Source of the DNA: Octopus vulgaris
Lineage: Eukaryota
DNA length: 64,000 nt
NCBI GenBank assembly: GCA_951406725.2
Contig: OX597816.1
Span: forward strand, 142,538,001 to 142,602,000
Direction: 5' to 3'
The notes below the pieces were generated by a model that was given only the letters and a program-made list of their open reading frames with translations, was not told the DNA's origin and ran no database searches. This document shows, piece after piece, positions 2,472 through 26,594 of this stretch (positions within the stretch are counted from its first letter, which is position 1; every line of letters begins with the position of its first letter). The position numbers and the translations under genes were made by a program.

Positions 2472-2577
2472 CTCCAGTTCCATCACCTTTGGTGAAATCA
2501 CCACCTTGGATCATAAATGCAGGAATGACACGATGAAAAGAACTTCCCTTATATGTTAATGGTTTATCACCTTTGGT
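2472..2577 (-). CDS. PPIB: Cyclophilin B copy L, exon 3
   Basis: Identical to copy R exon 3; AG/GT sites intact. Confidence 0.95.
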
Positions 2578-3536
2578 CTGAAAAGAAATTAAAAGCATTC
2601 AAGTTAACATATTGCAAAAAGATAGATAACAACCAAGTTAATATCACTCACATCAATTGTTTTACAGCTAAGTAAAAACTTATTGTATCATATTTATAAG
2701 ATTGCCTGGTAAAAGAGCTAAAATATGCTATATAGTAGTATTCTGTTGACATTCCATTTGCATATAAACATACTTTCATTAAGTCTGACTAGATGAAATA
2801 GAAGAATTAGACGCTTCCTTATTCACAGTGCTATACCAATTTTTCAGCATATTGAACCAAAGAGAAAAATGATTTACCAAGCAATATTACTGCTTCATTA
2901 TGTGAGCTAAGAATCAACACTAGTTATATCTCAATTGGTGTTTACTTATCACGTTCAGATTTCCAAATGAGTTAATCCACAATATTCAAATTAAGGTATT
3001 ACACTGACAAATTTCTTTCCAGTTCATTTAATATTCTAGATGTACAACTGTCCACAACAGTTGACATTCTTTCAACAGGACATCAAAGTTGAATGAACAG
3101 AGATAAAGTTGTTCTTAAATACAATTACAAAAGTTACATAAAGGCATCAGCCAGCTCTTAAATATTTTGACAAAAAAAAAAAAAATTTCTATTTCCAACA
3201 CTTCAAAAGTGACTGAAGCAGTTACGAGTCACCTTCTCTAACACCATGAGTCTCTTTCTGCAATCACCACTATATTTTCTGCATAGCCAGATCTACTGTG
3301 ACCTACTTTCCTAAGTCCTCCACTTTCAGAAATGTGGTATAAAAAATGGTATTTTGCATACAATACACCAATCTTCTGGCTAAATCACCTGTCCATCATT
3401 ACTAACTGACTATTCTCTTGGGTTGGCAAGATCAAACTATTTACTAAATAGCAATGTGGATCATGTGTGTATGTGTGGTCTTCAGCATTCAATTTTTTTA
3501 ATTTTTAATGATTAAAATTCAGAAATATAGGATTAC

Positions 3537-3653
3537 CATAGTTCCTTCAGCTAAAGTTTTGAAATTTTTGACGGTTTTAGGAACAGTCTTGCCAAACAGT
3601 CCAATCACAATTCGACCAGCAGGCTTATCACCAATCTTTATGTCAAAAAAGAC
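3537..3653 (-). CDS. PPIB: Cyclophilin B copy L, exon 2
   Basis: Identical to copy R exon 2; AG/GT sites intact. Confidence 0.95.
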
Positions 3654-4379
3654 CTGGTAAAAATAAGAAACAAAAAATGTGTGTATAAACTTATACACAT
3701 AGAAAGTACATGTAATCTCAAAAGTGGCTAGCTTGATATGTAGGAAAGGAGTTGGTAAGAACTTGATATTGTATATTCAGTGGAATATGCCTGCATATGT
3801 ATACCCATGTTTTAACATTGGTAATATACCTGTAGTATAATATGGATACTCTTACCCTTCATAGACTTATTTTAACTCTGATTCAGCTAAATGTTGTATA
3901 TACATATATATACACAATATATATGGATAGCTATATATACACAATATATATGGATAGCTATATAAACACAATATATATGGATATATATATATATATATAC
4001 ACAATATATATGGATTTATACACACAAAATATATAAGTACACACACACATATACATGCATATATACATACACACAGACATACATACATACATGCAAACAG
4101 GCATACATATACACAAACAGACATATATACACACAAACAAGGATATATACACATGCAAATATACACTTACATATATACACATACACACATATATCCATAC
4201 ATATATGCTGTAATTGAGATCTATTGACATGCTGTACTTGAGGAAACCTATTGAATCCAGTAACATCAAAATTAAATCCAATGAAAACTGTACTTGTGGC
4301 CGATGCCAGTGCTGCCTGACTGGCTCCCTCTGCCTGTAGCACATAAAATCCACCATCCTAACTTGGTCGATGCCAGCAA

Positions 4380-5813
4380 CTCCAGCCCCCAACACAACTG
4401 GCTCCTCTGCCGGAAGCACGTAAAAAGCACCATCCAAACATGGGCGATGCCAGTACCATGTGACTGGAACTCATGCCAACTACATGGAGTGGTTGGCGTT
4501 AGGAAGGGCATCCAACTGTAGAAACATTGCCACATCAGATTGGAACCTCGTGCAGTAACCTGGATAGCCAGTCATCATATATATACATACATAGACACAC
4601 ATATATACACCCATATATATATACACACACACATGTGAAATTTACAAAAAAACAAAAGATGAAGACAGGTATATAAACAAATAGGTGTACTAGTTTGATA
4701 CTTGGGAAGGTGAGTAAGTCTTTTATGTTTCAAGCCTATGCTCTTCAATAGAAAGGGACACAAGGAAATAAACAGAGAGATTTAAAAAATCATAGCAACT
4801 GTTTGGAAGAAGGCAGTTAGACAGGAGAGCTAGGAAGAAGGGGAAATAATAAAGTACTGGTGATCCCAAAATGAAGGTGTGCATGCCTGTATGTGAGAGT
4901 GCAATTATGTGCATGTGGAGAGGGCCTAGTGACATTGACGTGTGGGGTGACGTGATGTGGTGGGGGATTGTGAGAATGGCATGTGGGTTTGGGGTGAGGA
5001 TGGGTTGGGGTATGTGGGAGAGGAATATGGATGGAATGGGCATACATACACATGTATATACATATAATAATGATTCTTGATAGAATCAGGTACTTAAGAA
5101 TATGCACTTGGTCGTGTTGGATAAACCTCCAGCCCCCCACACAACTGGCTCCTCTGCCAGAAGCACGTAAAAAGCACCATCCAAACATGGGCAATGCCAG
5201 TACCACGTGACTGGCACTCGTGCCAACTGCATGGAGTGGTTGGCGTTAGGAAGGGCATCCAACTGTAGAAACATTGCCACATCAGATTGGAACCTACTGC
5301 AGTAACCTGGTTACCCAGTCATCATATATATACATACATATACACACATACACACACATGTGAAATTTACAAAAAAACAAAAGATGAAGCAGGTGTATAA
5401 ACAAGTAGGTGTACTAGTTTGATACTTGGGAAGGTGAGTAAGTATTTTATGTTTCAAGCCTATGCTCTTCAATAGAAAGGGACACAGGGAAATAAACAGA
5501 GAGAATTAAAAAACCATAGCAACTGTTTGGAAGAAGGGGAAATAATAAAGTACTGGTGATCCCAAAACGAAGGTGTGCATGCCTGTATGTGAGAGTGTAA
5601 TTATGTGCATGTGGAGAGGGCCTAGTGACGTTGACGTGTGGGGTGATGTGATGTGGTGGGGGATTGTGAGGATGGGTTGGGGTATGTGGGCATGGAATGT
5701 GTGGGAGTGGAATATGGATGGAATGGGTATACATACACATGTAAATACATATAATAATGATTCTTGATAGAATCAGGTACTTAAGAATATGCACTTGGTC
5801 GTGTTGGATAAAC
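4380..5813. repeat. Tandem duplication (~747 + ~687 bp), left arm only
   Basis: 4380-5126 repeated at 5127-5813 (paired ORFs 4272/5094, 4817/5447); single copy at ~20880-21350. Confidence 0.9.
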
Positions 5814-6298
5814 CTGTGATCACCACATACCAGAACGATATTCAGGATGTGTATACAGAGAAAACCACTTCTAAGAGTATTAAGCGTCAAGGGGCTGGCC
5901 CAAAGTACATGGTGTATTGATCATACATTGTTTAGTATACTCCATGGTGTCCAACTTATCATGAATCCCTATGGTGTATTATAAACAAATGAATAATAAC
6001 AGATGATGGATAAATGTCAGTTCATTACAGCCATTTCTTATACGTTTTTTATAGAAGAAATGAGTAAATTACATCACTTCAAAACAAAAGACCATAACCA
6101 TCAGATGAAACAATTTCAAAGCTATAGCGTATCTTGGATATTCTATTGTTTTGAAATTATGTTTTATCTGATGATAATGGACTTTTTCAAGTGATGTAAC
6201 GTACTCATTTTTCTATTACAAATGTGTAAGAAACAGTTGTAATGAGCTGACATTTGTCCATCGTTTGCTATTATTTGCTTATATATTATATATATGTA

Positions 6299-6668
6299 CT
6301 AGCAGTATTGCCCAGCGTTACTCAGGTTTGTAAGGGAAATAACTATAAAGCATTTTTAGAGAGTTATAGCCAAAAAATAGCAAAAAAATGGAGAAAAAAT
6401 GGTAAATTTTTTTTTAAATCGTTGACTCATCATAGACATTTTTAGAGAGTTACTTCCCTTATATAATAGCGAAAAAATGCATTAAAATGGGAACAAAATG
6501 GTAAATTATTTTAAAAACCGTAGACGCGCGCTAATACCCAGAAGGGCTCGATATGAATCACGACTATATGATACTCGGTTTTGGTTAAACTGCACCACAA
6601 AATGTGGGAGTAGTTAGGAATCTAAATCGTAGGAGACAGACACACAACCTCACTTTTATATATGAAGA
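6299..6668 (-). mobile_element. Non-autonomous Helitron (left arm only)
   Basis: 5' TC..TATATAAAA, 3' imperfect GC hairpin then CTAG, inserted between A and T, no TSD; empty site at ~20385. Confidence 0.75.
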
Positions 6669-8115
6669 TATATAATTGGGAATTGAAAAAGAGTAATTTC
6701 CTACATACTTCACTTTAATAAATGTTCTCCAATGTGTACCTGTTGGTGAAATATAAGTTTAGATTTACAAGAAAGTGATTTTTCAATTTTTATATTTGAA
6801 AGGCTCCCCATGTGTAGTTGTGCGTTAATACACTGTTGCTGAGCAACTAGTTCCCATGTGTCACACAATGAAGTTGTTCTTCAAAGTCTATTCATTTGTT
6901 GATGATAAAGCTAAAATTCTGAATGAAATGAAAGTTTTCCCACATACTTCATAGTTAAACAACTTTTTCTCTGGTGTGCATTATATTTTGTTAAAAGATT
7001 GAGGCAAATGATTTCCTACTTGTTTTATGAAAGACAATGTCTACCTTGATGGAATTTGAACTCAGAATGTAAAGAGAGAAGAAATGCTGAAAACAATAAT
7101 AATAGATGGTTGGTGGCTAGCATCACAGAAAAAAAAAGAAACTGAAGAATTGTGATGATAGAATTTATGGAATTAAAACAAAGTAATGGCTAGTAGACAG
7201 CTGATCATCATGTGTAGGAGATTGTGAAACTTGGTTGATAGCGAATATATGATTTGGTGCTAGAAGTCTCCACACATACACAACAGCCTTCTGATACTGT
7301 AAACACACATAGACAATTCCTGAAGCAGGCCATGGAGATACAGTCATAGGTACACAGCGTTTCTAAAATAGTAATAATTATAACCATAGTAATTATAATA
7401 GCTATGAAAATTGCAACAATAAAAGCTGCAAACTATGGCACATAGTGTTTTTTTTGCGGGGTGGGGGGGATCAGTTCAATACTTCAATCCCAGTGATTGA
7501 CTGATACTCATTCCATTAACCTTGAAAGAATGAAGGTATATTTGACCTCCATAGTATTGGAACTCATAATGCAAAGAGCCAGAAAAAAATGTCGCTCAGC
7601 CCCTTTTCTGCCAGTTTGCCACCTTAATATCAATAATATACAACATAAAATAAAAAGGACCCATGTCCTTCAGTTTCTTCTTTCCTTTCTTCTTGTGATG
7701 CTGACCACTAGCTGTCTATTACCATTTTTTCTTAATGTTTTTTTACTACCTTTGTTTCTGGTCTTATTAAATAAAAAAACAACAGCACAGTTAAAACAAT
7801 TGTTATAATCTTTTGGAAAAATGAAAATACAAAGAAAAAAATAGATGTATTAAATCAGTGTACCTTACATCACACTTGGTTTCTTTAGAGGAAAATGAGA
7901 AAAGTAGATTTTTAACAGTACTGCGCAAGAAAGACTGACAGATATACAGGGTGTTTAGGATAAATCTTACAATTATTTTATGTCTCCTTTTTACAGAAAT
8001 AGTTTGATGTATTGAAAGAGTCAATGGCATTAGAAATTATAAAGATAAATGTTGAGGTTGAGAAAAAGTTAGCTGACCTGGAAGATTGGAAACCATCTGA
8101 GTCAATTACTGTGTT

Positions 8116-8290
8116 ATGATATGCACCAGGTATCCAAATGCTGACATCATGATTGCTGCTCAATTATCTATGAACTTTGTAAAGGCTGTAAAATGTGACG
8201 TGGATAGCTGCAACCGAGACTGTGAAGCTGTAGCCAGCATGAAGGGACACAGCAAGTGTTCTGTGTCTGTACACCAGAATTCATCTCCAC
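8116..8290 (+). mobile_element. Tc1/mariner-superfamily transposase N-terminal relic (mirror 18766-18940, minus)
   Basis: MICTRYPNADIMIAAQLSMNFVKAVK..VDSCNRDCEAVAS.K.HS resembles the HTH N-terminus of invertebrate Tc1/maT-type transposases (recognition only). Confidence 0.4.
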
Positions 8291-10393
8291 ATCTTTGAAC
8301 AGGGTCTTAAACTCAATTTAGTTGGCTATGTGAAGCTGCTGGAGCCTATAGTCAATCCCTGACTCGAAAGGATTGCTGCAGGAAGGCTAAATATGTGGCA
8401 GCAGGATTCAGTTCCTTGCCATGCCTCCAGAAAGTGTCAGAAGTGGTAGTCAGAGAATTTCTACGACTTTACCAACCCCAATTTTTGGTCTCTTAATTCT
8501 ACCAATTGTAATCCCATACTATGGGATTACCTGTGAGGGGCGTAGTTGAGAAATGCAACAACTGTTCTACCCGAAACACCAAGAACAAGCTGGTGGCCAA
8601 GATCAAGGGGTTCGAAGATCTTCCCAGAGATACAGAGAGATAGGCATGTGCTAGATTCCAGAGCTGTCTTGAGGCCAGCTACTTTGAGTAAATTATCTCC
8701 CAGCAATAATCTAGTCATTATTTTAAGAATATTTTTTTTTAATACTTTTATTTTTGAATGGGATATTATGTTTTCTGTTCTTTTTATCCAAACTGTTAAA
8801 TTTAGCCTGAACACACTATAGCAGTAAGAATCAGATCGGGCAAGAAGACACGGTAATGAGACTATATGGAGAGGTGAAATTGTTGCAGGTGGATGAAGAA
8901 TGAGGGTATCAGATTATATATAATTATTCACTTCCCGTTTTAAGTTGGTACAATTCCGTACTGTTTCTGAAATTAAAAGTATCACTACTCATAGACGCAC
9001 GATTTTAATTCTTTTGTTCTGGTAAATGAATGCGATCACGCTGGGATTTTATCGTCGTAAAAGGTTTATTTGATCAAATCGACTAAAATAACCAAAGTAA
9101 GGATAAGTTTTTCGCCTACTTTTTATTATTACACCGCCAGTGTTCAGCGGGCTTTTTAATTTTTACCCATATCGTAATTTCGTGTACTTTTTAGATAAGT
9201 TTTACTGTTACACCCGTCACTTTAAAAATAAGTAGTGGGCTCGATTTGAGTGACTAAACCCTTTACGGCAATGCCCCAGTTTGGCCAAGTCAACTACTGA
9301 ATAATGAAATGTGTGTACGTGTGTAAGAAAAGTGACAGTTTCAGAAAGTAAAAATGCACCATCTCAAAGAGGTGGGAAGTATACGTATCTTCTAGAGAAA
9401 ATACTGGGTATCTCAAATAAACCAAAGCTATCTCATAATATACAGGAAACGTGGAGTGACTAGGACACGTCGGTGAAGCCTACATTTAGACTTTTGTCAG
9501 TTTCAACGTACGCCTTTAGTCGGTCCAACGAAAGTCTCTGAATTGTGAGCAAATAATTGGGTCTTTATACCCTTAGCGTAAATTTCAGGTAAACTAACCG
9601 TAAAATAGTTACAACCATTGCTCAAACTGCTCGAAATAGCAGCCGAATTCCCTCCGATACACTATTCTTGATATAGAAATAGGAGAAAAATAACCCATTG
9701 CATACAGATTATTTAATAGAATTTGAAGCTGAGAATTCACTCTGTCGATACTGGAGTTCCTCATTAAGTGCGAACTATCTGCAGATAGCACGTAGCAAGA
9801 AAATGTTGTAGTAGACCGTATCAGAAGTATTGAACGAGTGTGTGCGTTTATACACATACACTATATATACATTACAGTATAGATATATGGTATAGCTGTC
9901 GTCAGACAAATGAAATTCATACGAATTCAATGAAAATAATTAAGCGAATATCTCTTTTCATGCACATCTGTTAAAACAGATGTTGCTTATAAATGAAGTG
10001 CTTGCACACGAATTTAACTTTTGTGGTCGTTAATGATTAATATGAAAAATATTAAATAAAGTGATTGCGTTTGTCTTGCTTTGTCTAAAACGAAGTTACA
10101 GAGCGTTCATCCCAGTAGACTTGTTCATATAAAACAGTGTTTCACAGCAAAGGAATATGAGAATCGGTAGAGCATCGAATCAAATATTTTACAGTATGTA
10201 GTTATATCTTTTTATATTCCCAGTTCAAATCCGACTTAGCCCTAAAACCGGGTGTGCGTATTTTTTTCTTTCGCCAAATACTGAGTTAGAATCAACTGTT
10301 CCCTCCCCCACAAACAGCTTGTGTTTTTATGCTAAAAAAAAAATCAATTATTTATTGTATATGTAATAGCAGTTGCAGAAAAAGTCTACTTAC

Positions 10394-10489
10394 TTTATCA
10401 GTGACTTTAGGTCCTTTAGGTTTGGCTGTAGTAGACAAGAAAGCCGGAATTAGAGAGAGAAACAACACAAACGACAACAACTTCATCAT
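10394..10489 (-). CDS. PPIB: Cyclophilin B copy L, exon 1
   Basis: Reverse complement of 16433-16528; same translation, intact GT donor. Confidence 0.92.
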
Positions 10490-10955
10490 GATGTAGAAAT
10501 ATCGCCGACGCCGGTGTGAAATGTTACAATAGTCAAGCACTCGTTCCATAAATAAGTAGCACCGGTGCTGTATGAATAGCGCGGTAGTCGGATCAAATAA
10601 TCTAAATACTGAATTAGCTGTTATTACATTTTATTTCTCCCTTAGAACGATTAGAGAAAACGGATCAAAAGGAAAAGATCCGTCTTGGCGATTTAATTAT
10701 GAAATAAAAGCCCGGTAAAATTTCGCTTTTTACCGAAACAATTTCAAATACACGCGCCAGCTAAACACTTCATTCAAGAAACGACACGTCACTTTTACTT
10801 CTGACGTTACACCGGTCTATCAATAGCAACGTTGATGGAAACAAGAAAGCTTCTGGGTGGTCATTCGAAATAGCAGCTATATCTCTCTTACGTTGCTTAA
10901 GATATTTCTAGATGCACCATACCTGAAAATAAGACTAGTTGGTCATATTTTTGAT

Positions 10956-11040
10956 GGCGGAAGTAAAGAATACGCACACCACCCGTTTTCGGCCTAACGC
11001 TAACACTAAACACCAGGTGTGCGTATTCTTTACCTTCGCC
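10956..11040. mobile_element. 85-bp MITE with 25-bp TIRs (other copies 11591-11674, partial ~10245-10275; mirrors 15585-15669, 14978-15060, ~16646-16675)
   Basis: GGCGRARGTAAAGAATACGCACACC ... GGTGTGCGTATTCTTTACCTTCGCC. Confidence 0.8.
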
Positions 11041-11844
11041 GAATCTTCTTCCACAGGATAGTTCACTGAACCTGATTTGTCAATTATTTATTTCTTTGGT
11101 CCACAGAGTAAATAGGAGTATAGGGAGGTGAAGTAGGGCAATCGTTTTTGTGTGTAAAATTTCTCCAGCCCTTTTATGACAGTTAATAAGGGAGTGGTTG
11201 AGGCATTAAATGTGCTTCTACCCAGCAAGATCTGAAAATCCTTACCACGTCACTGATGGCTGATACTAAAAAGATAGATGGGGGCAGGGGCTACGTTGAA
11301 AACGTTGGCCGCTACATGTAGCTGATTCAGACCGAGAGAGAGAAAACAATTCAGATGTATTCATAGTACTTTGTCGACCTTTACCTCAGCGAGAGAGAGC
11401 AAAGCATTCTGTCCTACAGTCAATTCACTGCTTTATTATTATTCAATAAAATAACTGCTTGTTCAAATTTTCTTTTTCTCGCAACCACATGGATTACAGT
11501 TTATTAAGAAGGACCTTCAGCTTTCGTATTTTTCCCTTTAAAGTTAATACCTTCCAACGTGTTCTTGTTAGTAAATGTATGATCAAAAGAGCGAAGGTAA
11601 AGAATACGCATACCCGGTGTTTAATGTTAGCGTTAGGCAGGAAACGGGTGGTGTGCGTATTCTTTACCTTCGCCGAAGATCCATTAAAATTATTTCACTA
11701 CTCTATTGGTCGTACTTATTTAATTTACTTGTCTCCATCTTTCTTATACATGGTACAAAAAATTAAGGGTGAGATGATGATGATATGATTATCATGTTCA
11801 TTGAAGTATATTTATTGGAATAGAACATGTATGTATATAATGTT

Positions 11845-14400
11845 AGTTAGTTAATTTTTTTGGCTCAAAAAGCAAGGCCATGTAGGGGGACATGGAGTTA
11901 TGTACAGGGTGGTGTTCATGTAAAGAGTTCAGGCCACTTGAGGTCAAGGGAGACTTTGAACCGAGCGGTCATCGGCATCTTCACCATCTCGTCTGGCAGC
12001 TTATTCCACGGATCCGCAACCCGGACGGAGAAAGCCCCTCTCCTTCGATTGAGATGAAATCGTCGCAGATAGAGCTTTTCGGAATGACCCCGCAGCAGAC
12101 GCTCTGGAGCAGGAGTGAAGAACAGCTCTTTCGAGAGGTTACATTTTCCGCTTATGATGTTGTGAGCAAGAATGAGATCTTCACGGCGTCGTCGTTTTTC
12201 TAGAGAATAAAGGTCGAGCGTCTTCAGCCTTTCTTCATAAGACAAATTATTGAGACCAAGAACCATGCGGGTAGCCAGCTTCTGGACTCTTTCGAGATGC
12301 TGTATGTCTTTGAGGAGATAAGGAGAAGAGGCTTGAATCCCGTACTCCAATATGGGTCTCACCAGCGTGACATAGAGTGGTAGGAATATGGCTGCTGTGA
12401 GCATTCCGAATTACCGTCGAATCAAGAACAGAATTCCGCGTGCTTTGTTGGCAGCATGGACGCACTGGGCCGAAGGCGAAAAGGAGGAATCCATCAAGAT
12501 ACCCAGGTCCTTTACCTGATCGGTCCTCTCCAGCAGCAGACGATCCGGCTCGAAATCAAGTTGAGTTGCAGGAGGAGATCCAACAGGCAGATGACAGCAC
12601 TTTGACACGTTCAGACACAGGTCCCATTCGTTAGACCATCTCCAAATTTGGTGGAGGCATCGACGAAGATCCTCTATATCACCGCGAGGAGCGACCAGTT
12701 TGACATCGTCGGCAAATAGAAAGGTGTGTTGTGTGAGGTCGTCTAGCAAGTCATTTATGAAGACTATGAACAACAAGGGCCCAAGCACTGAACCTTGAGG
12801 CACGCCACTACTCGCACTGGAGACGTCGGACCGTGAACCATTAACTTGGACTTGGAAGGAGCGATCTGAGAGGAATGCACCAACCCATCGTACAATATCC
12901 GGATGGAAACTATATGCTTGAAGCTTGACAAGTAATAGGTGGTGGTTTACCGAGTCAAAAGCTTTGGCAAAGTCCAATAAAATGATGTCAACAGCATCAC
13001 TATCATCGAGGATGCGCGTCACCAATTCTTCCATTACCAGTAAGTTGGTCAAGCATGATCTCTTCGGCACGAAGCCGTGTTGAGAATTAGAGATAGAGGC
13101 TGTGTTTTGGAGCTGGAGCATCATACTTTTCTTAAGGATGGTTTCGAACATCTTTCTTATTATTGATGTAAGGAAACCGGTCGGTAGTTAAGCGGGTCTT
13201 CGCGGCTCCCTTTCTTGAAAATTCGGCAGATTATCGCTGTTCTCCAGTCCGCAGGTATAACACCCGTCGCCAATGACATATTGAATAGACGTGTTAAGGG
13301 CTTGCAGATGACCGGAGCCAACGCTTTGATAACCCGTGGGTGTATGCCGTCAGGGCCGTGACCCTTGTTGACATCGAGGCCTTGAATAACGCGTTCGACT
13401 TCGTCCCGCGTGATGACCAATCGAAGCATTGGAGGTACCAAGATCGTTCAGAATTGTTTGAGCAATGGCATTAATGGGAAGGACAAGTGAGGGAGAATCC
13501 AAACAGATTTTATCGTGAGCAGGTTTCGTAGCTAAATCTGCCCCACTGGAGTTTTGACTACGTTTCTTCTTTTTGGGAGAACAATGGTCTTCAGGTGGGT
13601 TTGAATCTATGCTCCTCAAATTAGGTTGGGGAACCTCCGGGACCGAAAAGGCAGATGAGGAAGAATCCGCACAGGAACGATCATGTGCGGAAACGACCGC
13701 CGGTTCCTTCGCCTTCTTTGGTCGCTTCGATTTTGTTCCCTTCGGTTTGGACGTCTCCAGGGAAGAAATCAAGGGTGGCTCTGCGTCAATAGTAGACTGT
13801 TTATTCAGTAAATGAGCAACAACAGACTTTAGGTGCTCGACCTCTTGTTTGAGCAACAGCAACTGCTCGTTGAGATGACCGTTGGTAGGACCATCATCCT
13901 GATGAGTAACTGACATGATAGATGGTTGACCAAAAACAATCTTCTATGGGCTCTAGGACAAATCTGGGTTAAAGCAGGAACAAAAACAGTTGCAATCCTT
14001 GTAGGAGTAGGCAACAGCAGACAAAATCTGAGAGAGTTTGGGCTGAACCGAATCACAATCCAAGATTGAAAGCAGACGGTGAAACGAGTCAGGAACCCTT
14101 CCTAGTTGTCTGAAGCAGCTTTAGGATAAGGAATAGTAGGTCCAACTTTAGAATGTTGATATGCATGAAAAATGTTTCACACGGTTAAATATCATTTGAC
14201 GTGCCACTTAGTACTTCAATATTTGCGTCTGCGTATGTGTGAATAATGTGTTTATGTGCGAGAAGGCACATGTTTTTGTCTATCGTTAATTTAATTTTTT
14301 TTTTCTCACGTTTTTCCCTTTTAAAATATTTCTTTTTAAAGTAATTTATACGCTGGAGGGAGGGCTGAGTGATTGTTTTTACTGTAAATTCTCTTTTCTC
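11845..14400 (-). mobile_element. CR1-group non-LTR retrotransposon, internally deleted and inactivated (5' boundary uncertain)
   Basis: RT motifs GPDGI, NYRPVSL, LDFAKAFDSV, GVPQGSVLGPLLF, FADD, YEERLK..L..LE.RR; frameshift ~13170; in-frame TAA at 12411-12413; coiled-coil ORF1-like ORF 13916-13440; (TAAC)n 3' tail at 11845-11853; absent from right arm. Confidence 0.9.
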
Positions 14401-14540
14401 TGTTGTGGAAGTTTTAGTAGCTCGAGTAACCGGCTTGTAATCAAACTATGATTCCCCACTTTTTATCCTGTATGTCTGAGATTTCACTAGCCAATGATTC
14501 TTTCGTTTCTTTGATATGATAACGGCATGATTAGATGAAA

Positions 14541-14730
14541 AGGATCTTTTCCTTTTGATGGACGGAATTTTCTAGTTAACTAAACAATTTGAAACTTCGT
14601 ATACTGTTAGAATGTGTCAAAAGAAAACAATATTGTAAACAAAATTGTAATTTGTAAGTTTAACGTAGTTTAATTCTTTCAAATTGTTTAGTTAACTAGA
14701 AAATTCCGTCCATCAAAAGGAAAAGATCCT
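14541..14730. mobile_element. MITE-like fold-back: perfect 54-bp inverted repeat with 82-bp loop, at the palindrome apex
   Basis: 14541-14594 AGGATCTTTTCCTTTTGATGG...TTTGAAA is the exact reverse complement of 14677-14730; terminal GGATCTTTTCCTTTTGAT recurs at ~16243 and ~10664. Confidence 0.7.
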
Positions 14731-15372
14731 AATAGTTTGATCACAAGCCGGTCTGATCAGTGTGGTTACTCGAGCTGCTAAAACTAACAGCTAAATCTTC
14801 CACAACATTAAATACGTACATGTTCTATTCCAATAAATATACTTCAATGAACATGATAATCATATTATACCCATCTCACCCTTAATTTTTTGTACCATGT
14901 ATAAGAAAGATGGAGACAAGTAAATTAAGTAAGTATGACCAATAAATAGAGTAGTGAAATAATTTTAATGGATCTTCGGCGAAGGTAAAGAATACGCACA
15001 CCACCCGTTTTCGGCCTAAAGCTAACATTAAACACCGGGTATGCGTATTCTTTACCTTCGTTCTTTTGATCAAGGTATTAACTTTAAAGGGAAAAATACG
15101 AAAGCTGAAGGTCCTTCTTAATAAACTGTAATCCATGTGGTTGCGAGAAAAAAAAAATTTGAACAAGCAGTTATTTTATTGAATAATAATTAAGCAGTGA
15201 ATTGACTGTAGGACAGAATGCTTTGCTCTCTCTCGCTGAGGTAAAGGTCGACAAAGTACTATGAATACATCTGAATTGTTTTCTCTCTCTCGGTCTGAAT
15301 CAGCTACATGTAGCGGCCAACGTTTTCAACGTAGCCCCTGCCCCCATCTATCTTTTTAGTATCAGCCATCAG

Positions 15373-15380
15373 TGACGTGG
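15373..15380 (+). promoter_or_regulatory. UPRE-like motif TGACGTGG upstream of PPIB copy R (mirror CCACGTCA 11245-11252)
   Basis: Exact match to the XBP1/ATF6 UPRE consensus TGACGTGG/A upstream of an ER foldase; 8-mer only. Confidence 0.35.
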
Positions 15381-16432
15381 TAAGGATTTTCAGATCTTGC
15401 TGGGTAGAAGCACATTTAATGCCTCAACCACTCCCTTATTAACTGTCATAAAAGGGCTGGAGAAATTTTACACACAAAAACGATTGCCCTACTTCACCTC
15501 CCTATACTCCTATTTACTCTGTGGACCAAAGAAATAAATAATTGACAAATCAGGTTCAGTGAACTATCCTGTGGAAGAAGATTCGGCGAAGGTAAAGAAT
15601 ACGCACACCTGGTGTTTAGTGTTAGCGTTAGGCCGAAAACGGGTGGTGTGCGTATTCTTTACTTCCGCCATCAAAAATATGACCAACTAGTCTTATTTTC
15701 AGGTATGGTGCATCTAGAAATGTCTTAAGCAACGTAAGAGAGATATAGCTGCTATTTCGAATGACCACCCAGAAGCTTTCTTGTTTCCATCAACGTTGCT
15801 ATTGATAGACCGGTGTAACGTCAGAAGTAAAAGTGACGTGTCGTTTCTTGACCGGTGTAACGTCAGAAGTAAAAGTGATGTGTCGTTTCTTGAATGAAGT
15901 GTTTAGCTGGCGCGTGTATTTGAAATTGTTTCGGTAAAAAGCGAAATTTTACCGGGCTTTTATTTCATAATGATGTTTCATAATTAAATTTTAATATCTA
16001 AATGCTGCTATTTATAGCAGATATTGACATCGGTGATTATTTGTTAGAGAAATTAAACTTTGAAAAGTGTTGTATAGTAATAAAAGAATTGCGACAATAG
16101 GCGCAAGCGTGGCTGTCTAACAAGAAGCTTGCGTCCCTACCAGATGACTTCGAGTTCGGTCCCAATGCGTGAAACCTTGGGCTGGTATTTTCTACAATAG
16201 ATTCGGGTCGACCAAAGCCTTGTGAGTTGATTTGGGAAAGACGGATCTTTTCCTTTTGATCCGTTTTCTCTAATCGTTCTAAGGGAGATAAAATGTAATA
16301 ACAGCTAATTCAGTATTTAGATTATTTGATCCGACTACCGCGCTATTCATACAGCACCGGTGCTACTTATTTATGGAACGAGTGCTTGACTATTGTAACA
16401 TTTCACACCGGCGTCGGCGATATTTCTACATC

Positions 16433-16528
16433 ATGATGAAGTTGTTGTCGTTTGTGTTGTTTCTCTCTCTAATTCCGGCTTTCTTGTCTACTACAGCCAA
16501 ACCTAAAGGACCTAAAGTCACTGATAAA
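16433..16528 (+). CDS. PPIB: Cyclophilin B copy R, exon 1 (signal peptide + KPKGPKVTDK)
   Basis: ATG ATG at 16433; MMKLLSFVLFLSLIPAFLSTTAKPKGPKVTDK = hydrophobic signal peptide + CypB N-terminal GPKVT.K motif; followed by donor GTAAGT at 16529. Confidence 0.93.
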
Positions 16529-19500
16529 GTAAGTAGACTTTTTCTGCAACTGCTATTACATATACAATAAATAATTGATTTTTTTTTTAGCATAAGCACA
16601 CTAGCTGTTTGTGGGGGAGGGAACAGTTGATTCTAACTCAGTATTTGGCGAAAGAAAAAAATACGCACACCCGGTGTTTAGGGCTAAGTTGGATTTGAAC
16701 TGGAAATATAAAAAGATATAACTACATACTGTAAAATATTTGATTCGATGCTCTACCGATTCTCATATTCCTTTGCTGTGAAACACTGTTTTATATGAAC
16801 AAGTCTACTGGGATGAACGCTCTGTAACTTCGTTTTAGACAAAGCAAGACAAACGCAATCACTTTATTTAATATTTTTCATATTAATCATTAACGACCAC
16901 AATAATTGATAGAAAAAAAATCTTAACCACATTACTTCTACTGGTAAAAGTTAGATTCGTGTGCAAGCACTTCATTTATAAGCAACAAAATTTGTTTTAA
17001 CAGATGTGCATGAAAAGAGATATTCGCTTAATTATTTTCATTGAATTCGTATGAATTTCATTTGTCTGACGACAGCTATACCATATATCTATACTGTAAT
17101 GTATATATAGTGTATGTGTATAAATGCACACACTCGTTCAATACTTCTGATACAGTCTACTACAACATTTTCTTGCTACGTGCTATCTGCAGATAGTTCG
17201 CACTTAATGAGGAACTCCAGTATCGACAGAGTGAATTCTCAGCTTCAAATTCTATTAAATAATCTGTATGCAAAGGGTTATTTTTCTCCTATTTCTATAT
17301 CAAGAATAGTGTATCGGAGGGAATTCGGCTGCTATTTCGGGCAGTTTGAGCAATGGTTGTAACTATTTTACGGTTAGTTTACCTGAAATTTACGCTAAGG
17401 GTATAAAGACCCAATTATTTGCACACAATTCAGAGACTTTCGTTGGACCGACTAAAGGCGTACGTTGAAACTGACAAAAGTCTAAATGTAGACTTGACCG
17501 ACGTGTCCTAGTCACTCCACGTTTCCTGTATATTATGAGATAGCTTTGGTTTATTTGAGATACCCAGTATTTTCTCTAGAAAATACGTATACTTCCCACC
17601 TTTTTGAGATGGTGCATTTTTACTTTCTGAAACTGTCACTTTTCTTACACACGTACACACATTTCATTCTTCAGTAGTTGACTTGGCCAAACTGGGGCAT
17701 TGCCGTAAAGGGTTTAGTCAATCAAATCGACCCCACTACTTATTTTTAAAGTGACGGGTGTAACGGTAAAACTTATCTTAAAAGTACACGAAATTATGAT
17801 ATGGGTAAAAATTAAAATATTTTGAACAAAAAAAAATTTCACAGAAGGAAACCACCACCCTTGCTATTTTCCTTCTCCATGAGGTCACAATAACTATTCC
17901 GAAAGCCCGCTGAACACTGGCGGTGTAATAATAAAAAGTAGGCGAAAAACTTACCCTTACTTTGGTTATTTTAGTCGATTTGATCAAATAAACCTTTTAC
18001 GACGATAAAATCCCAGCGTGGTCGCATTCATTTACCAGAACAAAAGAATTAAAATCGTGCGTCTATGAGTAGTGATACTTTTAATTTCAGAAACAGTACG
18101 GAATTGTACCAACTTAAAACGGGAAGTGAATAATTATATATAATCTGATACCCTCATTCTTCATCCACCTGCAACAATTTCACCTCTCCATATAGTCTCA
18201 TTACCGTGTCTTCTTGCCCGATCTGATTCTTACTGCTATAGTGTGTTAAGGCTAAATTTAACAGTTTGGATAAAAAGAACAGAAAACATAATATCCCATT
18301 CAAAAATAAAAGTATTAAAAAAAATATTCTTAAAATAATGACTAGATTATTGCTGGGAGATAATTTACTCAAAGTAGCTGGCCTCAAGACAGCTCTGGAA
18401 TCTAGCACATGCCTATCTCTCTGTATCTCTGGGAAGATCTTCGAACCTCTTGATCTTGGCCACCAGCTTGTTCTTGGTGTTTCGGGCAGAACAGTTGTTG
18501 CCTTTCTCAACTACGCCCCTCACAGGTAATCCCATAGTATGGGATTACAATTGGTAGAATTAAGAGACCAAAAATTGGGGTTGGTAAAGTCGTAGAAATT
18601 CTCTGACTACCACTTCTGACACTTTCTGGAGGCATGGCAAGGAACTGAATCCTGCTGCCACACATTTGGCCTTCCTGCAGCAATCCTTTCGAGTCAGGGA
18701 TTGACTATAGGCTCCAGCAGCTTCACATAGCCAACTAAATTGAGTTTAAGACCCTGTTCAAAGATGTGGAGATGAATTCTGGTGTACAGACACAGAACAC
18801 TTGCTGTGTCCCTTCATGCTGGCTACAGCTTCACAGTCTCGGTTGCAGCTATCCACGTCACATTTTACAGCCTTTACAAAGTTCATAGAGAATTGAGCAG
18901 CAATCATGATGTCAGCATTTGGATACCTGGTGCATATCATAACACAGTAATTGACTCAGATGGTTTTCAATCTTCCAGGTCAGCTAACTTTTTCTCAACC
19001 TCAACATTTATCTTTATACTTTCTAATGCCATTGACTCTTTCAATACATCAAACTATTTCTGTAAAAAGGAGACATAAAATAATTGTAAGATTTATCCTA
19101 AACACCCTGTATATCTGTCAGTCTTTCTTGCGCAGTACTGTTAAAAATCTACTTTTCTCATTTTCCTCTAAAGAAACCAAGTGTGATGTAAGGTACACTG
19201 ATTTAATACATCTATTTTTTTCTTTGTATTTTCATTTTTCCAAAAGATTATAACAATTGTTTTAACTGTGCTGTTGTTTTTTTATTTAATAAGACCAGAA
19301 ACAAAGGTAGTAAAAAAACATTAAGAAAAAATGGTAATAGACAGCTAGTGGTCAGCATCACAAGAAGAAAGGAAAGAAGAAACTGAAGGACATGGGTCCT
19401 TTTTATTTTATGTTGTATATTATTGATATTAAGGTGGCAAATGGCAGAAAAAGGGCTGAGCGACATTTTTTTCTGGCTCTTTGCATTATGAGTTTCAATA

Positions 19501-20029
19501 CTATGGAGATCAAATATACCTTCATTCTTTCAAGGTTAATGGAATGAGTATCAGTCAATCACTGGGATTGAAGTATTGAACTGATCCCCCCCACCCCGCA
19601 AAAAAAAACACCATGTGCCATAGTTTGCAGCTTTTATTGTTGCAATATTCAAAGCTATTATAATTACTATGGTTATAATTATTACTATTTTAGAAATACT
19701 GTGTACCTTTGACTGTATCTCCATGGCCTGCTTCAGGAATTGTCTATGTGTGTTTACAGTATCAGAAGGCTGTTGTGTATGTGTGGAGACTTCTAGCACC
19801 AAATCATATATTCGCTATCAACCAAGTTTCACAATCTCCTACACATGATGATCAGCTGTCTACTAGCCATTACTTTGTTTTAATTCCATAAATTCTATCA
19901 TCACAATTCTTCAGTTTCTTTTTTTTTCTGTGATGTTAGCCACCAACCATCTATTATTATTGTTTTCAGCATTTCTTCTCTCTTTACATTCTGAGTTCAA
20001 ATTCCATCAAGGTAGACATTGTCTTTCAT

Positions 20030-20380
20030 AAAACAAGTAGGAAATCATTTGCCTCAATCTTTTAACAAAATATAATGCACACCAGAGAAAAGTTGTTTAA
20101 CTATGAAGTATGTGGGAAAACTTTCATTTCATTCAGAATTTTAGCTTTATCATCAACAAATGAATAGACTTTGAAGAACAACTTCATTGTGTGACACATG
20201 GGAACTAGTTGCTCAGCAACAGTGTCTTAACGCACAACTACACATGGGGAGCCTTTCAAATATAAAAATTGAAAAATCACTTTCTTGTAAATCTAAACTT
20301 ATATTTTACCAACAGGTACACAATGGAGAACATTTATTAAGGTGAAGTATGTAGGAAATTACTCTTTTTCAATTCCCAAT
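20030..20380 (+). pseudogene. Decayed C2H2 zinc-finger array in PPIB intron 1 (mirror ~6680-7025, minus)
   Basis: MHTREKLFNYEVCGKTFIS from 20075; LIFYQQVHNGEH..EVCRK near 20300-20360; broken by stops/frameshifts. Confidence 0.55.
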
Positions 20381-21459
20381 TATATATGCATATATATAAT
20401 ATATAAGCAAATAATAGCAAACGATGGACAAATGTCAGCTCATTACAACTGTTTCTTACACATTTTTAATAGAAAAATGAGTACATTACATCACTTGAAA
20501 AGACCATTATCATCAGATAAAACATAATTTCAAAACAATAGAATATCCAGGATACGCTATAGCTTTGAAATTGTTTCATCTGATGGTTATGGTTTTTTTT
20601 TTAAAGTGATGTAATTTACTCATTTCTTCCATAAAAAATGTATAAGAAATGGCTGTAATGAACTGACATTTATTCATCATCTGTTATTATTCATTTGTTT
20701 ATAATACACCATAGGGATTCATGATAAGTTGGACACCATGGAGTATACTAAACAATGTATGATCAATACACCGTGTACTTTGGACCAGCCCCTTGACGCT
20801 TAATACTCATAGAAGTGGTTTTCTCTGTATGCACAACCTGAATATCGTTCTGGATATTTAATTGACCAAAGGTGGTGATCACAGGTTTATCCAACACGAC
20901 CAAGTGCATATTCTTAAGTACCTGATTCTATCAAGAATCATTATATATATATACATGTGTATGTATACCCATTCCATCCATATTCCACTCCCACATACCC
21001 CACTCCCACACATTCCATGCTCACATACCCCCAACCCATCCTCACCCCAAACCCACATGCCATCCTCACAATCCCCCACCACATCACATCACTCCACATG
21101 CACATAATTACACTCTCACATACAGGCATGCACACCTTCGTTTTGGGATCACCAGTACTTTATTATTTCCCCTTCTTCCAAACAGTTTGTATGATTTTTT
21201 AATTCTCTCTGTTTATTTCCCTGTGTCCCTTTCTATTGAAGAGCATAGGCTTGAAACATAAAATACTTACTCAGCTTCCCAAGTATCAAACTAGTACACC
21301 TATCTTCATCTTTTGTTTTTTTGTAAAAATGACTGGGTAACCAGGTTACTGGCATCGGCCACAAGTGCAGTTTTCATTGGATTTAATTTTGATGTTACTA
21401 GATTAAATAGGTTTCCTCAAGAACAGCGTGTCAATAGATCTTCTCAATTACAGCATATA

Positions 21460-21767
21460 TCTCTCTCTATATAAACGGCAGTTTGTCTGTGCGTGTTTCT
21501 GTGTGTCTGTTTTCTCGTACCCTCACCCTGACCACGGCTTTCAACCGATTCTGATGAAACTTGACACACACATAGCCCAATGTCATAATTCAAAACTAAC
21601 GCAGCGAAAATTTTGAAAAGTTCCCCCAGTTCTGAAAAAAATCGATAAATTCGACATGGGGTCCAGAATCAAAAGAAACAAACCACAGACTGTCTAGGGG
21701 ACGCAACTCAACCTTTTTTTACTCTCAAAAAAAATTTACCATCATTTTTTTCCATTTTTTTGCTTTT
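21460..21767 (+). mobile_element. 3'-truncated Helitron-like element (right arm only)
   Basis: 5' TCTCTCTCTATATAAA + GTCT/GT-rich tract; shares AAAATTTACCAT..TTTTTCCATTTTTTTGCT with the 6299-6668 element; flanked by a 58-bp direct repeat. Confidence 0.65.
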
Positions 21768-21995
21768 TTAAATAGGTTTCCTCAAGAACAGCGTGTCAAT
21801 AGATCTTCTCAATTACAGCATATATGTATAAATATATGTGTGTATGTATATATGTAAGTGTATATTTGCATGTGTATATATCCTTGTTTGTGTGTATATA
21901 TGCCTGTTTGTGTATATGTATGCCTGTTTGCATGTATGTATGTATGTGTGTATGTATATATGCATTATATATATGTGTGTGTGTACTTGTGTATA

Positions 21996-22218
21996 CTCTC
22001 TTACTCTTTATTCTCTTACTTGTTTCAGTCATTTGACTGTGGCCATGCTGGAGCATCGCTTTTAATCGAACAGCTTGACCCCAGGACTTATTCTTTTGTA
22101 AGCCCAGTACTTATTCTATCGGTCTCTTTTGCCGAACCGCTAAGTAAAGGGGACACAAACACACCAGCATCGGTTGTCAATCAATGCTAGGGGAACAGAC
22201 ACACAAACACACACACGC

Positions 22219-22249
<31 letters not shown>

Positions 22250-22418
22250 TACGCCGGGCTTCTTTCAGTTTCTGTCTACCAAATCCACTCACAAGGCTTT
22301 GGTCGGCCCAAGGCTATAGTAGAAGACACTTGCCCAAGGTGCCACGCAGTGGGACTGAACCCGGAACCATGTGGTTGGTAAACAAGTTACTTACCACACA
22401 GCCAATCCTGCGCCTATG
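21996..22418 (-). mobile_element. Full-length tRNA-derived SINE (right arm only)
   Basis: Head GGCGCAGGATTGGCTGTGTGG (A box) ..GGTTCAGTCCC (B box); 3' GCATGGCCACAGTCAAATGACTGAAACAAG(TAAGAG)n; absent at ~4035. Confidence 0.85.
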
Positions 22419-22754
22419 TATGTATATATTCTTCATATATTTTGTGTGTATATATCCATATATATTGTGTATATATATATCCATATATATATTGTGTATA
22501 TATATGTATGTATATGTATATACAACATTTAGCTGAATCAGAGTTAAAATAAGTCTGTGAAGGATAAGAGTATCCATATTATACTACAGGTATATTACCA
22601 ATGTTAAAACATGGGTATACATATGCAGGCATATTCCACTGAATATACAATATCAAGTTCTTTCCTACATATCAAGCTAGCCACTTTTGAGATTACATGT
22701 ACTTTCTATGTGTATAAGTTTATACACACATTTTTTGTTTCTTATTTTTACCAG

Positions 22755-22871
22755 GTCTTTTTTGACATAAAGATTGGTGATAAGCCTGCTGGTCGAATTG
22801 TGATTGGACTGTTTGGCAAGACTGTTCCTAAAACCGTCAAAAATTTCAAAACTTTAGCTGAAGGAACTATG
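22755..22871 (+). CDS. PPIB: Cyclophilin B copy R, exon 2
   Basis: ccag|GTC...ATG|gtaat; [39 protein letters not shown]; phase 0/0. Confidence 0.96.
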
Positions 22872-23870
22872 GTAATCTTATATTTCTGAATTTTAATCAT
22901 TAAAAATTTAAAAATTTGAATGCTGAAGACCACACATACACACATGATCCACATTGCTATTTAGTAAATATTTTGATCTTGCCAACCCAAGAGAATAGTC
23001 AGTTAGTAATGATGGACAGGTGATTTAGCCAGAAGATTGGTGTATTGTATGCAAAATACCATTTTTTATACCACATTTCTGAAAGTGGAGGACTTAGGAA
23101 AGTAGGTCACAGTAGATCTGGCTATGCAGAAAATATAGTGGTGATTGCAGAAGGAGACTCATGGTGTTAGAGAAGGTGACTCGTAACTGCTTCAGTCACT
23201 TTTGAAGTGTTGGAAATAGAAATATTTTTTTTTTGTGTCAAAATATTTAAGAGCTGGCTGATGCCTTTATGTAACTTTTGTAATTGTATTTAAGAACAAC
23301 TTTATCTCTGTTCATTCAACTTTGATGTCCTGCTGAGAGAATGTCAACTGTTGTGGACAGTTGTACATCTAGAATATTAAATGAACTGGAAAGAAATTTG
23401 TCAGTGTAATACCTTAATTTGAATATTGTGCATTTGCTGCATTATATGAAATCATGAATAGAAACATTGTGGATCAACTCATTTGGAAATCTGAACGTGA
23501 TAAGTAAACACCAATTGAGATATAACTAGTGTTGATTCTTAGCTCACATAATGAAGCAGTAATATTGCTTGGTAAATCATTTTTCTCTTTGGTTCATTTG
23601 CTGAGAAATTTGTATAGCACTGTGAATAAGGAAGCGTCTAATTCTTCTATTTCATCTAGTCAGACTTAATGAAAGTATGTTTATATGCAAATGGAATGTC
23701 AACAGAATACTACTATATAGCATATTTTAGCTCTTTTACCAGGCAATCTTATAAATATGATACAATAAGTTTTTACTTAGCTGTAAAACAATTGATGTGA
23801 GTGATATTAACTTGGTTGTTATCTATCTTTTTGCAATATGTTAACTTGAATGCTTTTAATTTCTTTTCAG

Positions 23871-23976
23871 ACCAAAGGTGATAAACCATTAACATATAAG
23901 GGAAGTTCTTTTCATCGTGTCATTCCTGCATTTATGATCCAAGGTGGTGATTTCACCAAAGGTGATGGAACTGGAG
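23871..23976 (+). CDS. PPIB: Cyclophilin B copy R, exon 3
   Basis: ttttcag|ACC...GGAG|gtaag; [35 protein letters not shown], containing the catalytic FHRVI/MIQGGD motifs. Confidence 0.97.
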
Positions 23977-24099
23977 GTAAGTATTTTCTGTTGCACAGTT
24001 AGAGAAAAACCTGGAAAAAAAAGCAGGTAGCTAACAGAAAATCTAAAGAGTTTGCTGATGTTCTGTAATGATCTGAGGCATGATGTGTTTTGGATTGCT

Positions 24100-25290
24100 A
24101 AGCAGTATATTGGTATAAATCAGGATGCCTTTGGAGTGAAGTTGTGTAGTAACAGCAGCATACTGGTGTTCACTGATGTCAAAAAGAGGCATGAAAATGC
24201 TAATGCTACTGAGGGATGTTATGAAATGAAGAGTGCAAAGAAGAGAGCCCAATTAGACTTTCCATAGGGATCAATCAGCAACTGCAGTTGATGGCTATAC
24301 AATGGAAAGAAAATTATCTGGTGAAATAGAACATCCTATTTAGTTAAAATGCAATGAATTAAGATATTTAGTTTAGGTGAGTGTTTGAGTTTGTACTAGG
24401 ATGGAGCACCAGTGCTACCATTCCCTGAAGTGGATAAGGCTTTCCATAGGGTACTCTTTGTTCTTGTGTCATAAAGGAAGCTAAGAGATGAATTGCTTTT
24501 GAGAACCATTCTAACCATGTACAGACATGATGTACACAAGGTGAGTATTAACATTAATTCAGGAAGGAATTTAGAGTTCAGCTGTATGTTAAAAGGCCTT
24601 AGCTCTCAGCACACTCTTGTCTATTATAGTTTTACAGACAACAGCAGAGGAGCTTAAGACTGGCTGATTGTGGAAACTTCCATATACTGATGACTTACTT
24701 AGATCTTCTAGCTGAATCTATGTAAGAATGAGAGAAATTCCATATGTGGAGGGGAGGTTTAGAACTGAGTGGCTTGAAAGCAATGACAAAAATTGCAGAT
24801 GGAAGACTTGACTCTAGAATCTGGGAGGTGGCCACACTCAGTAGGAGTAAGAAGGAATTCTGTACTGTGTACCCCATATAAACTACAGGTTCACAACATC
24901 ATAAGTTGGTTTATAAAGACAGTCAGGTTCCCAAAATATAGTCAACAGCTTGTTTCCTAAGTGGCCAAATCAGTAGCGATGGGGACTTTTCTAAAAGCAA
25001 ACTACCCAGAATAAGTAAAGTGGAAAAGATTTGGCAAGAAAGGGATTCTTTCTGCAAGTGAATGGTAAATTGTATGATTCTTGATATTACAAAGTACATA
25101 TTACATGGTAGTAAAAAATGGACATTGAATGCAGAAAATGTATTAAGGATGGAAAGAAATGGAGACAAGTCTGTTCTGATGTATGTGGAAATAATCTAAA
25201 AGAAAAATGGAATATAAGAGGAATCAGATGTATTGTACAAAAGACTACACTGAAAGGATATGATGAGACTGCCAATTTCATTTGCAAGGC
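24100..25290 (+). mobile_element. Highly decayed RTE-clade LINE in PPIB intron 3 (mirror at ~1160-2350, minus)
   Basis: STLLSIIVLQTTAEELKTG*LWKLPYTDDL (~24608-24700) resembles RTE SPLLFIIVL..ITEEFKTG.PWELLYADDL; downstream KG..L.V.GKLYD / LHGSK.W remnants. Confidence 0.65.
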
Positions 25291-25759
25291 TAATGTCTCT
25301 CAATAAAATATAGAATTTAAATACCTCCTTGTTTTTCTATCCCTAAAAGCATTGGCTTTTGTATTAATGTCAAAATGAATGTTAATACTTCTATCAAAAG
25401 AGTAGCAGATTACACTGTGACAGCATCCCTGTTTTGGGCTGATCTTCTACAAAGCTCAAGTGTGACCAACATTAAAACACCCCTTATATGTACAGGACAT
25501 TGCTGCTATTACAATTTACATAAACATTCCAAACCTTTTCAGTTGATTGACAAATGCTCATAGGCATTCTGTGAGCTAGTAACTGAAATCTCCTCTCCTG
25601 TTACTATAATGGCTTCTATTCCTCTGAACTAGCAAGCTTTTGTTCTCTCTTCTTGTCATCTCTACTGTCTCAATACTTGCCAAATACTTTGCTTAGTCCT
25701 TCTTAGAATCAATGTCACCAGTCAGTTGAGGCCTGTAAAAGTCATGACCACTGCCTTTA

Positions 25760-25871
25760 TCGTCGTTTAGCGTCCGTTTTCCATGCTAGCATGGGTTGGA
25801 CGGTTCTACTGGGGTCTGTGAAGCCAGAAGGCTTCATCAGGCCCAGTCAAATCTGGCAGTGTACCTACGGC
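25760..25871 (-). mobile_element. SINE 3' fragment (right arm only)
   Basis: CCAACCCATGCTAGCATGGAAAACGGACGCTAAACGACGAT tail on minus; empty site at ~692. Confidence 0.75.
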
Positions 25872-26212
25872 TACCTTTTTGAATCCAATTAAAAGCCAAA
25901 TACACATCCTTTGATAAGGAAACCTCAGTATACTTTGCCAGAAATCTAATAATAAAGACACTAAAAATCGTGATTTAAAACGGCTATGTCTTTCATGTAA
26001 ATATTTGAATTTTTAAATGCAACCTGCCTTGATGCCAAAACTGCTAAAGGGAAAATGGTTAATCAATTTTTGATCTTTTTCTAATTGGATAATTTATTCT
26101 GGATTCACTATTTTACCATAACCACCACTATCCTATCACCCTTCTTTTTAGATTGTTGCTATTTCTGATTTACTACCTTTATATAATATCTATTTTCATT
26201 GATTCCACTTAG

Positions 26213-26397
26213 GTGTCAGTATATATGGTGAGAAATTCTCTGATGAAAACTTCAAGCTAAAGCACTATGGAGCTGGCTGGCTGTCGATGGCAAATGCTGG
26301 CAAAGATACAAATGGTTCACAGTTCTTCATTACCACTAAGATAACTGACTGGCTTGATGGACGCCATGTTGTTTTTGGTAAAGTCCTTGAAGGGATG
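26213..26397 (+). CDS. PPIB: Cyclophilin B copy R, exon 4
   Basis: cttag|GT...ATG|gtaag; [62 protein letters not shown]; 185 nt restores phase. Confidence 0.97.
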
Positions 26398-26594
26398 GTA
26401 AGATACCATTGATGTCCTATTTTCTTTACTTCATTTTTCAATAAGCTTTATGAGCAGTAGTGCTTGTCAGAAATGTTTTTCTTGCACCTGTTGTCTTATA
26501 ATTTCTAGGTAAATCTTTTTGCAAGTTATTTTTGTATTTTTTAACATTATATTATAGCTGGTGTTACACTAAATTCTTGCTAATGTCTATTTGA

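Follow-up and report, generated by a model that had tools for sequence, protein, structure and literature searches.

A natural palindromic duplication of cyclophilin B in Octopus vulgaris centred on a fold-back transposon

The apex described here is a real and well-preserved natural case of a palindromic gene duplication centred on a transposon, and the transposon likely caused the duplication; the mechanisms themselves are already known. The window (the whole 64-kb stretch of Octopus vulgaris DNA that was analysed) contains a palindrome of more than 26 kb, identified by self-comparison, with a cyclophilin B gene in each arm. The coordinates of the arms, the apex and the genes are given in Table 1. 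That the element is the cause is held to be highly probable when transposase joining, fold-back priming and exchange between alleles are taken jointly; an even chance is given to the particular reading in which a transposase joined the far end of the element to a site 90 bp upstream, inverted, on the sister copy.

Table 1. Position of the arms, apex and genes of the palindrome in the window
Feature	Position	Strand	Remarks
Left arm	1..11844		Continues past the left end of the window; self-comparison
Left cyclophilin B copy, exons 1-4	166..10489 (10489-10394, 3653-3537, 2579-2472, 350-166)	-	Matches O. vulgaris CAI9720101.1 and O. sinensis XP_029633390.1 (E173)
20-bp stub of apex element end	10662..10681	-	Mirror of 16243-16262
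LINE insertion, left arm only	11845..14400	-	RVT_1 at 12414-13187, frames broken
Innermost left arm	14401..14451		Mirrors 14731-14807; 14- and 13-bp deletions; block alignment
Ancestral flank of 90 bp, left only	14452..14541		Colinear in organism C up to 14541
Element left end, left half of perfect inverted repeat	14542..14594	+
Loop, internal family sequence	14595..14676	+
Putative template-switch point	14677..14685		Family continuation pairs 8/9 with 14586-14594
Right half of inverted repeat	14677..14729	-	Putative self-copy of the left 53 bp of the element
Novel junction and innermost right arm	14730..14807		Element end abuts mirror of about 14451
Right arm	14731..26563		Mirror verifiable up to 26563; self-comparison
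20-bp stub of apex element end	16243..16262	+	Closes as small hairpin
Right cyclophilin B copy, five exons	16433..27226 (16433-16528, 22755-22871, 23869-23976, 26214-26398, about 27095-27226)	+	Matches O. vulgaris CAI9720103.1 (D173, D203)

The outer arms were paired by self-comparison as 1-11844 with 14804-26563, the mirror being traced to 26563, and the distal end of the right arm was not found in the 64-kb window. Their divergence is 84 of 8,589 aligned bases (0.98%), taken from eight chosen non-repeat blocks and leaving out a misaligned first 500-bp bin and the bins of 20700-22700. An earlier sequence-only reading of the same DNA had the left arm breaking after 11844 and resuming at 14401, and a 2,556-bp insert indeed lies between these positions. 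The same reading matched the sequence from 14401 to the reverse complement of 14733-14807 with small deletions and saw about 90 extra bp on the left at 14449-14540. Block alignment pairs 14401-14451 with the reverse complement of 14731-14807 (3 mismatches over 50 bases, gaps of 14 and 13 bp), and the extra sequence is best placed at 14452-14541, exactly 90 bp. The segment 14760-14805 is a piece of a dispersed repeat. Later insertions in the arms comprise the 2,556-bp LINE and others of 257, 86, 370 and 115 bp. The arms are structurally unlike in intron 1 (4380-5815 versus 20883-22415), the left having a 750-bp tandem duplication and the right another arrangement.

The insert that hides the apex is a LINE with a reverse transcriptase domain identified by Pfam (RVT_1, E 3.8e-29). 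TGTT flanks both of its ends, a single TGTT is present in the right arm and contigs of the LINE family stop at 14393-14400. The LINE entered the left arm after the palindrome had formed. Its upstream frame runs into the reverse transcriptase, and it is multi-copy in organisms A and B. No endonuclease domain was detected in it by Pfam, nor any family in 11916-12407 and 13353-13943, and it may represent an internally deleted family. Another LINE fragment, at 43642-44718, retains part of a reverse transcriptase domain. The raw-read run X22 gave 10 reads, all less than 90% alike and all on an A/T-rich part of the LINE, with none on the element or the arm, and was uninformative.

The two cyclophilin B copies stand head to head with their start codons separated by 5,944 bp. 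Between the arms there are no differences in the 321 bases of exons 1-3 and two in the 185 of exon 4; no family was identified by Pfam in exon 1. The O. vulgaris records carry E173 and N203 (CAI9720101.1) and D173 and D203 (CAI9720103.1). Both pairs were also identified in O. sinensis on the same chromosome (XP_029633390/1 with E173 and N203, XP_029633393/4 with D173 and D203), where the pairing rests on shared chromosome length and neighbouring accessions, not on orientation or adjacency. The only O. bimaculoides record among those listed carries D at both positions. The separation of O. vulgaris from O. sinensis is dated at 2.5 million years ago, and the split from O. bimaculoides dates to about 34 million years (PMC10700109). 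Since the gene pair is common to the first two species the duplication is older than about 2.5 million years, and it is younger than about 34 million years if O. bimaculoides is single-copy.

An assembly artefact, with two haplotypes joined head to head through the inverted repeat, would agree with an arm divergence close to the 1.22% heterozygosity of O. vulgaris (PMC10700109) and with two sequencing runs (X2 and X3, below) in which the inner left arm is missing and the depth is not doubled. It is nevertheless extremely unlikely, because two species each show two loci with the same diagnostic residue pairs; moreover the window contains no N and the turning point coincides with a microhomology within an element of the family.

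The O. vulgaris record of the left copy, CAI9720101.1, is annotated as fused to dicer 2-1, a DEAD/Helicase_C protein. Because no DEAD/Helicase_C exon was found within the 64-kb window, the duplication may stop short of the dicer 2-1 gene; no further host gene was recognised in 27200-64000. The upstream region of the right copy only contains a 257-bp insertion with a dispersed repeat (15972-16237) and a 42-bp tandem duplication (15807-15890), which could make the two cyclophilin B promoters differ.

At the apex the inverted-repeat search located a perfect repeat of 54 bp (14541-14594 and 14677-14730) around a loop of 82 bp (14595-14676), in agreement with the earlier description of a hidden apex. 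Its fold has a z-score of -15.4 and none of 200 shuffles was equally stable. The element is taken to start at 14542 and not at 14541, because organism C still matches the latter base; the element proper is a fold-back of 188 bp (14542-14729) with a 53-bp repeat. It is short and non-coding, with no open frame of 100 codons, and several of its features are those expected of a small DNA transposon of the MITE or non-autonomous TIR type. The window contains 13 perfect inverted repeats of at least 20 bp, one of them of 59 bp, so it is the position of the apex repeat and not its size that is special. The probability of finding no difference in the 53-bp repeat at the measured arm rates is 0.06-0.59, and the perfect repeat therefore needs no special upkeep.

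Elsewhere in the window the apex element is represented only by the two 20-bp stubs, whose hairpin reaches a few bases into the flank in both arms; they may represent a small fold-back, or else a family copy that has lost internal sequence. An 85-bp hairpin element is repeated at 14978-15060, 15587-15669 and about 16647, with mirrors at 10956-11039 and 11591-11674, upstream of and within the cyclophilin gene. Alignment of those at 14978 and 15587 with the apex family gives only short likeness. Other fold-backs are located at 62449-63730 (1.3 kb, 87% self-complementary, with a perfect stretch of 59 bp), 61862-62390, 58438-58627, 38744-39108 and 29478-29558.

The family of the apex element was identified in other sequencing runs, four of 24 being aligned to 14050-14968 (X2 from organism A and X3 from organism B). 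Position 14607 is covered by 113 contigs in X2, 116 in X3 and 35 in X14. Summed depth over 14546-14669 in X2 and X3 is 1e5-3e6, a depth and not a copy number, against 17.6 and 57.8 on the unique arm. These counts support the view that the fold-back is the left end of a pre-existing high-copy family, a membership that the sequence-only reading had made a condition of its proposal. Gap-free family pieces with 92-94% identity point to a subfamily with the same end form. No transposase or superfamily was identified for the apex element in the scans of genome_contigs, viral_contigs and metagenome: a 23-base internal pattern gave no match in genome_contigs or viral_contigs, and a 20-base terminal pattern gave 19 metagenome loci, none extending beyond 21 bases of the element, as expected by chance.

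As a family with terminal inverted repeats the earlier proposal holds in part: the high-copy family stands, but the 54-bp repeat is probably not its native terminal repeat. Loop-bearing members continue differently from the apex, 27 organism B contigs leaving it after 14675 and one organism A contig after 14685. In other members with two ends the right end is resumed at 14704, 14708, 14713 and, in one case, 14680; it matches over only 17-26 bp in three of these four, and the native terminal repeat would be roughly 20-25 bp. The next nine bases of the family continuation pair at eight positions with 14586-14594, the inner end of the perfect repeat. At a fixed junction the chance of such a match is 4.3e-4; no other site within the element pairs better, and at the mismatch the base agrees with the proximal copy. 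This pairing leads us to read the right 53 bp as copied from the element's own left end, at a 9-bp imperfect repeat. Long native terminal repeats, with deletions ending inside them, may instead account for the same structure. Among the 23 pieces listed from the organism runs (a further 3,602 lie outside that list) none spans 14676-14704. Another member shows a different fold-back-like join, from 14584 to 14680, and self-copying may be a local habit of the family. Run X3 also contains a join from 14634 back to 14542 at a depth of 3,669, which may be a tandem array of the first 94 bp of the element in organism B.

The ancestral site is represented in organism C, which is about 7-8% diverged. One contig of 911 nt (depth 12.3) follows the arm and then 14440-14541, and past 14541 its remaining 581 nt are unlike the window stretch. 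The site is empty in organism C, with the family still present there, because the contig matches to 14541 and then passes into unlike sequence; in this one contig colinearity ends at the first base of the element. The 90 bp are thus ancestral sequence, and 14401-14448 is not an independent dispersed copy, since the contig joins the arm through 14440-14541. The left arm also matches organism C at five listed states (14811, 14816, 14866, 14869 and 14871) where the right arm is derived.

The right arm begins no more than 1 base from the element end and 90 bp short of the left arm, and its first bases are TAA. This novel junction is also present in organisms A and B, whose contigs span it (14704-14968). 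The left flank ends in AAA, the right flank begins with TAA and the mirror of the right flank in the left arm has TCA, so the flanks do not carry the same bases; no target-site duplication was established at the apex element, and a TA or TAA target would need two substitutions. In one other X2 contig the element end is followed by TAAT. Loss of the target duplication is expected after rearrangement. The junction of the 90-bp loss has at most 1-2 bases of microhomology, and by a rough estimate a random deletion would start at the element end a few times in 100.

The same junction bears on the possibility that the palindrome arose by another route with a 90-bp spacer and that the element was inserted later. 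The arms did take several later insertions (2,556, 257, 86, 370 and 115 bp) and a single substitution turns the left flank into TA, but such an insertion must fall within 1-2 bases of the junction, its flanks show no duplication and colinearity with organism C ends exactly at the element, which makes this a very unlikely origin.

In runs X2 and X3 the depth is 0 at 14422-14514 and no separate left-arm contig was identified. Arm depth is near that of unrelated long contigs (17.6 versus 16.9 in X2, 57.8 versus 49.5 in X3) and not doubled. This gap is not proof of absence; the segment sits between two high-copy repeats, and the gap may come from removal of the short link between them. The inner left arm may also be lost or polymorphic in the animals behind these runs. 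In one X3 contig, states derived in the left arm (14936 and a gap of 4 bp at 14941) occur together with states derived in the right, which suggests that left-type sequence is present, now or earlier, in organism B; the mix may also come from bubble collapse during contig building. Three small runs, X18-X20, also from organism B, contain 0.37-0.42 of the words of the intergenic segment 14100-15700.

An inverted exchange between two alleles through the repeats of the element, one allele already being without the 90 bp, is consistent with inner arms that differ by 4-5%, with the five states shared by the left arm and organism C, and with the presence of only the right junction in X2 and X3. Against it, the X3 mix at 14936 and 14941 fits both arms being present or converted, and a single-copy allele with the right junction and a distal flank was not seen. 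Such an exchange is considered unlikely.

Fold-back priming at short inverted repeats is known from Tetrahymena rDNA and mammalian amplicons. For the apex it would start with a break in the element or beyond it; the resulting single strand would fold back at the 9-bp repeat or at an existing 53-bp repeat and be extended, the hairpin-capped chromosome would then be replicated, and the 90 bp of the right arm would be lost later. A single event would cover both the long repeat and the palindrome, the 8/9 match marks the inner end of the perfect repeat with the mismatched base following the proximal copy, and no sequence distal to the repeat is present at the apex. This agrees with yeast, where inverted duplications are primed at repeats of 5 and 11 bp and mismatch correction favours the proximal copy (PMC10622511): both have a short imperfect repeat at the centre, the mismatch resolved to the proximal copy and the distal sequence lost. 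Fold-back priming, however, predicts arms symmetric outward from the repeat. At the apex the arms are shifted by 90 bp relative to each other, precisely where the element ends, and the loss, which starts within 1 base of this point, needs a second and end-precise event. Furthermore, when 14542-14685 is folded its 3' end pairs with a repeat at about 14648-14654 and not with 14586-14594 (48 of 200 shuffles as good). Unlike the yeast cases, the palindrome is germline and old rather than selected in culture. This route is the main rival and is regarded as possible, though on the doubtful side.

In hybrid element insertion the end of an element is joined to a site in the same flank on the sister copy; this reaction was reportedly described for the Drosophila P element by Gray, Tanaka and Sved in 1996 (cited in PMC3744419 and PMC3239180). 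The apex is alike in that a precise element end is joined to a nearby site of the same flank, inverted, and the ancestral sequence is met by the two ends at different positions. It differs in being a natural animal duplication found in two species and not a laboratory recombinant, in having no target duplication shown, and in a right end that looks self-copied. Transposase joining of this type is favoured because a single step accounts for the loss of the distal flank, for the offset and for flanks that do not match; the self-copied end may then be due to a local repair event of its own.

The earlier proposal had also drawn on maize Ac/Ds. In maize and rice, transposition between sister chromatids leaves transposon ends at the junction of an inverted duplication (PMC3239180, PMC3744419), as at the apex. 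That reaction depends on 5' and 3' ends in direct orientation, supplied by two linked elements, and it produces 8-bp target duplications as well as footprints (PMC3239180, PMC3744419); at the apex there is a single 188-bp element, and an 8-bp duplication is absent. With one element seen where Ac/Ds requires two, hybrid element insertion comes closer as a model. The central inference of the sequence-only reading, that a MITE seeded the gene duplication, is supported in part: the element at the apex and the empty site in organism C agree with it. Of the two mechanisms that it named, without deciding between them, fold-back alone does not give the 90-bp offset and Ac/Ds lacks its second element.

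The transposase reading would comprise the following order of events. The ancestral locus, as shown by the organism C contig, consisted of the arm, the 90 bp and further sequence without the element; a member of the high-copy family now starts at 14542. A template switch at the 9-bp imperfect repeat would have swapped the right part of the element for a copy of its left 53 bp, before or after a reaction of the hybrid-insertion type in which the right end would have become attached to the mirror of about 14451. A second break and a far-away junction would have rescued the product with two centromeres or none; no such distal junction was found within the 64-kb window, and fold-back priming and allele exchange would need one as well. 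The LINE entered the left arm later, and gene conversion would account for the roughly 99% similarity of the outer arms. The inner arms have 11 differing bases in 213 (8 events), compared with 84 in 8,589 for the outer blocks (Fisher p 1.7e-5 or 1.7e-3). This excess, together with I170 being present in both window copies yet in only one O. sinensis copy, suggests possible conversion between the outer arms.

Gene-converted chromosome palindromes have gene-bearing arms about 99% alike with signs of arm-to-arm exchange (PMC3403216, PMC6790999); the octopus palindrome is much smaller, with arms likewise about 99% alike. In the Drosophila repleta group the non-coding TIR element BuT5 lies at the breakpoint of fixed rearrangements (PMC3698922), and it resembles the apex as a MITE at a breakpoint, although BuT5 is associated with inversions and the apex with a gene-bearing inverted duplication. 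Literature searches, mostly outside subscription papers, gave no paper on this locus, and the words palindrome, inverted repeat and foldback were absent from the main text of the O. vulgaris repeat paper as far as that text was available (PMC13282606); the repeat library of that paper may include a name for the family.

In experiments with flies, plants and yeast, inverted duplications are known to arise from transposon ends and from short inverted repeats. In nature, germline examples that preserve a readable apex together with an empty site in an outgroup appear to be uncommon; a search of the maize genome identified 3 small direct duplications among 7,611 hAT insertions (PMC3744419). That an abundant, fold-back-prone family recurrently makes palindromic gene duplications is a speculative extension and rather improbable. 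If true, the tiny hairpin stubs, the hairpin MITEs and a gene-bearing palindrome fixed for more than 2.5 million years would all come from element ends turning back on their flank, and a measurable share of octopus head-to-head gene pairs would be centred on the apex element. The locus keeps the original flank, the new junction and the gene pair, and it offers a concrete case in which to test whether DNA transposons of octopus give rise to duplicated genes, as well as a small model for arm-to-arm gene conversion.
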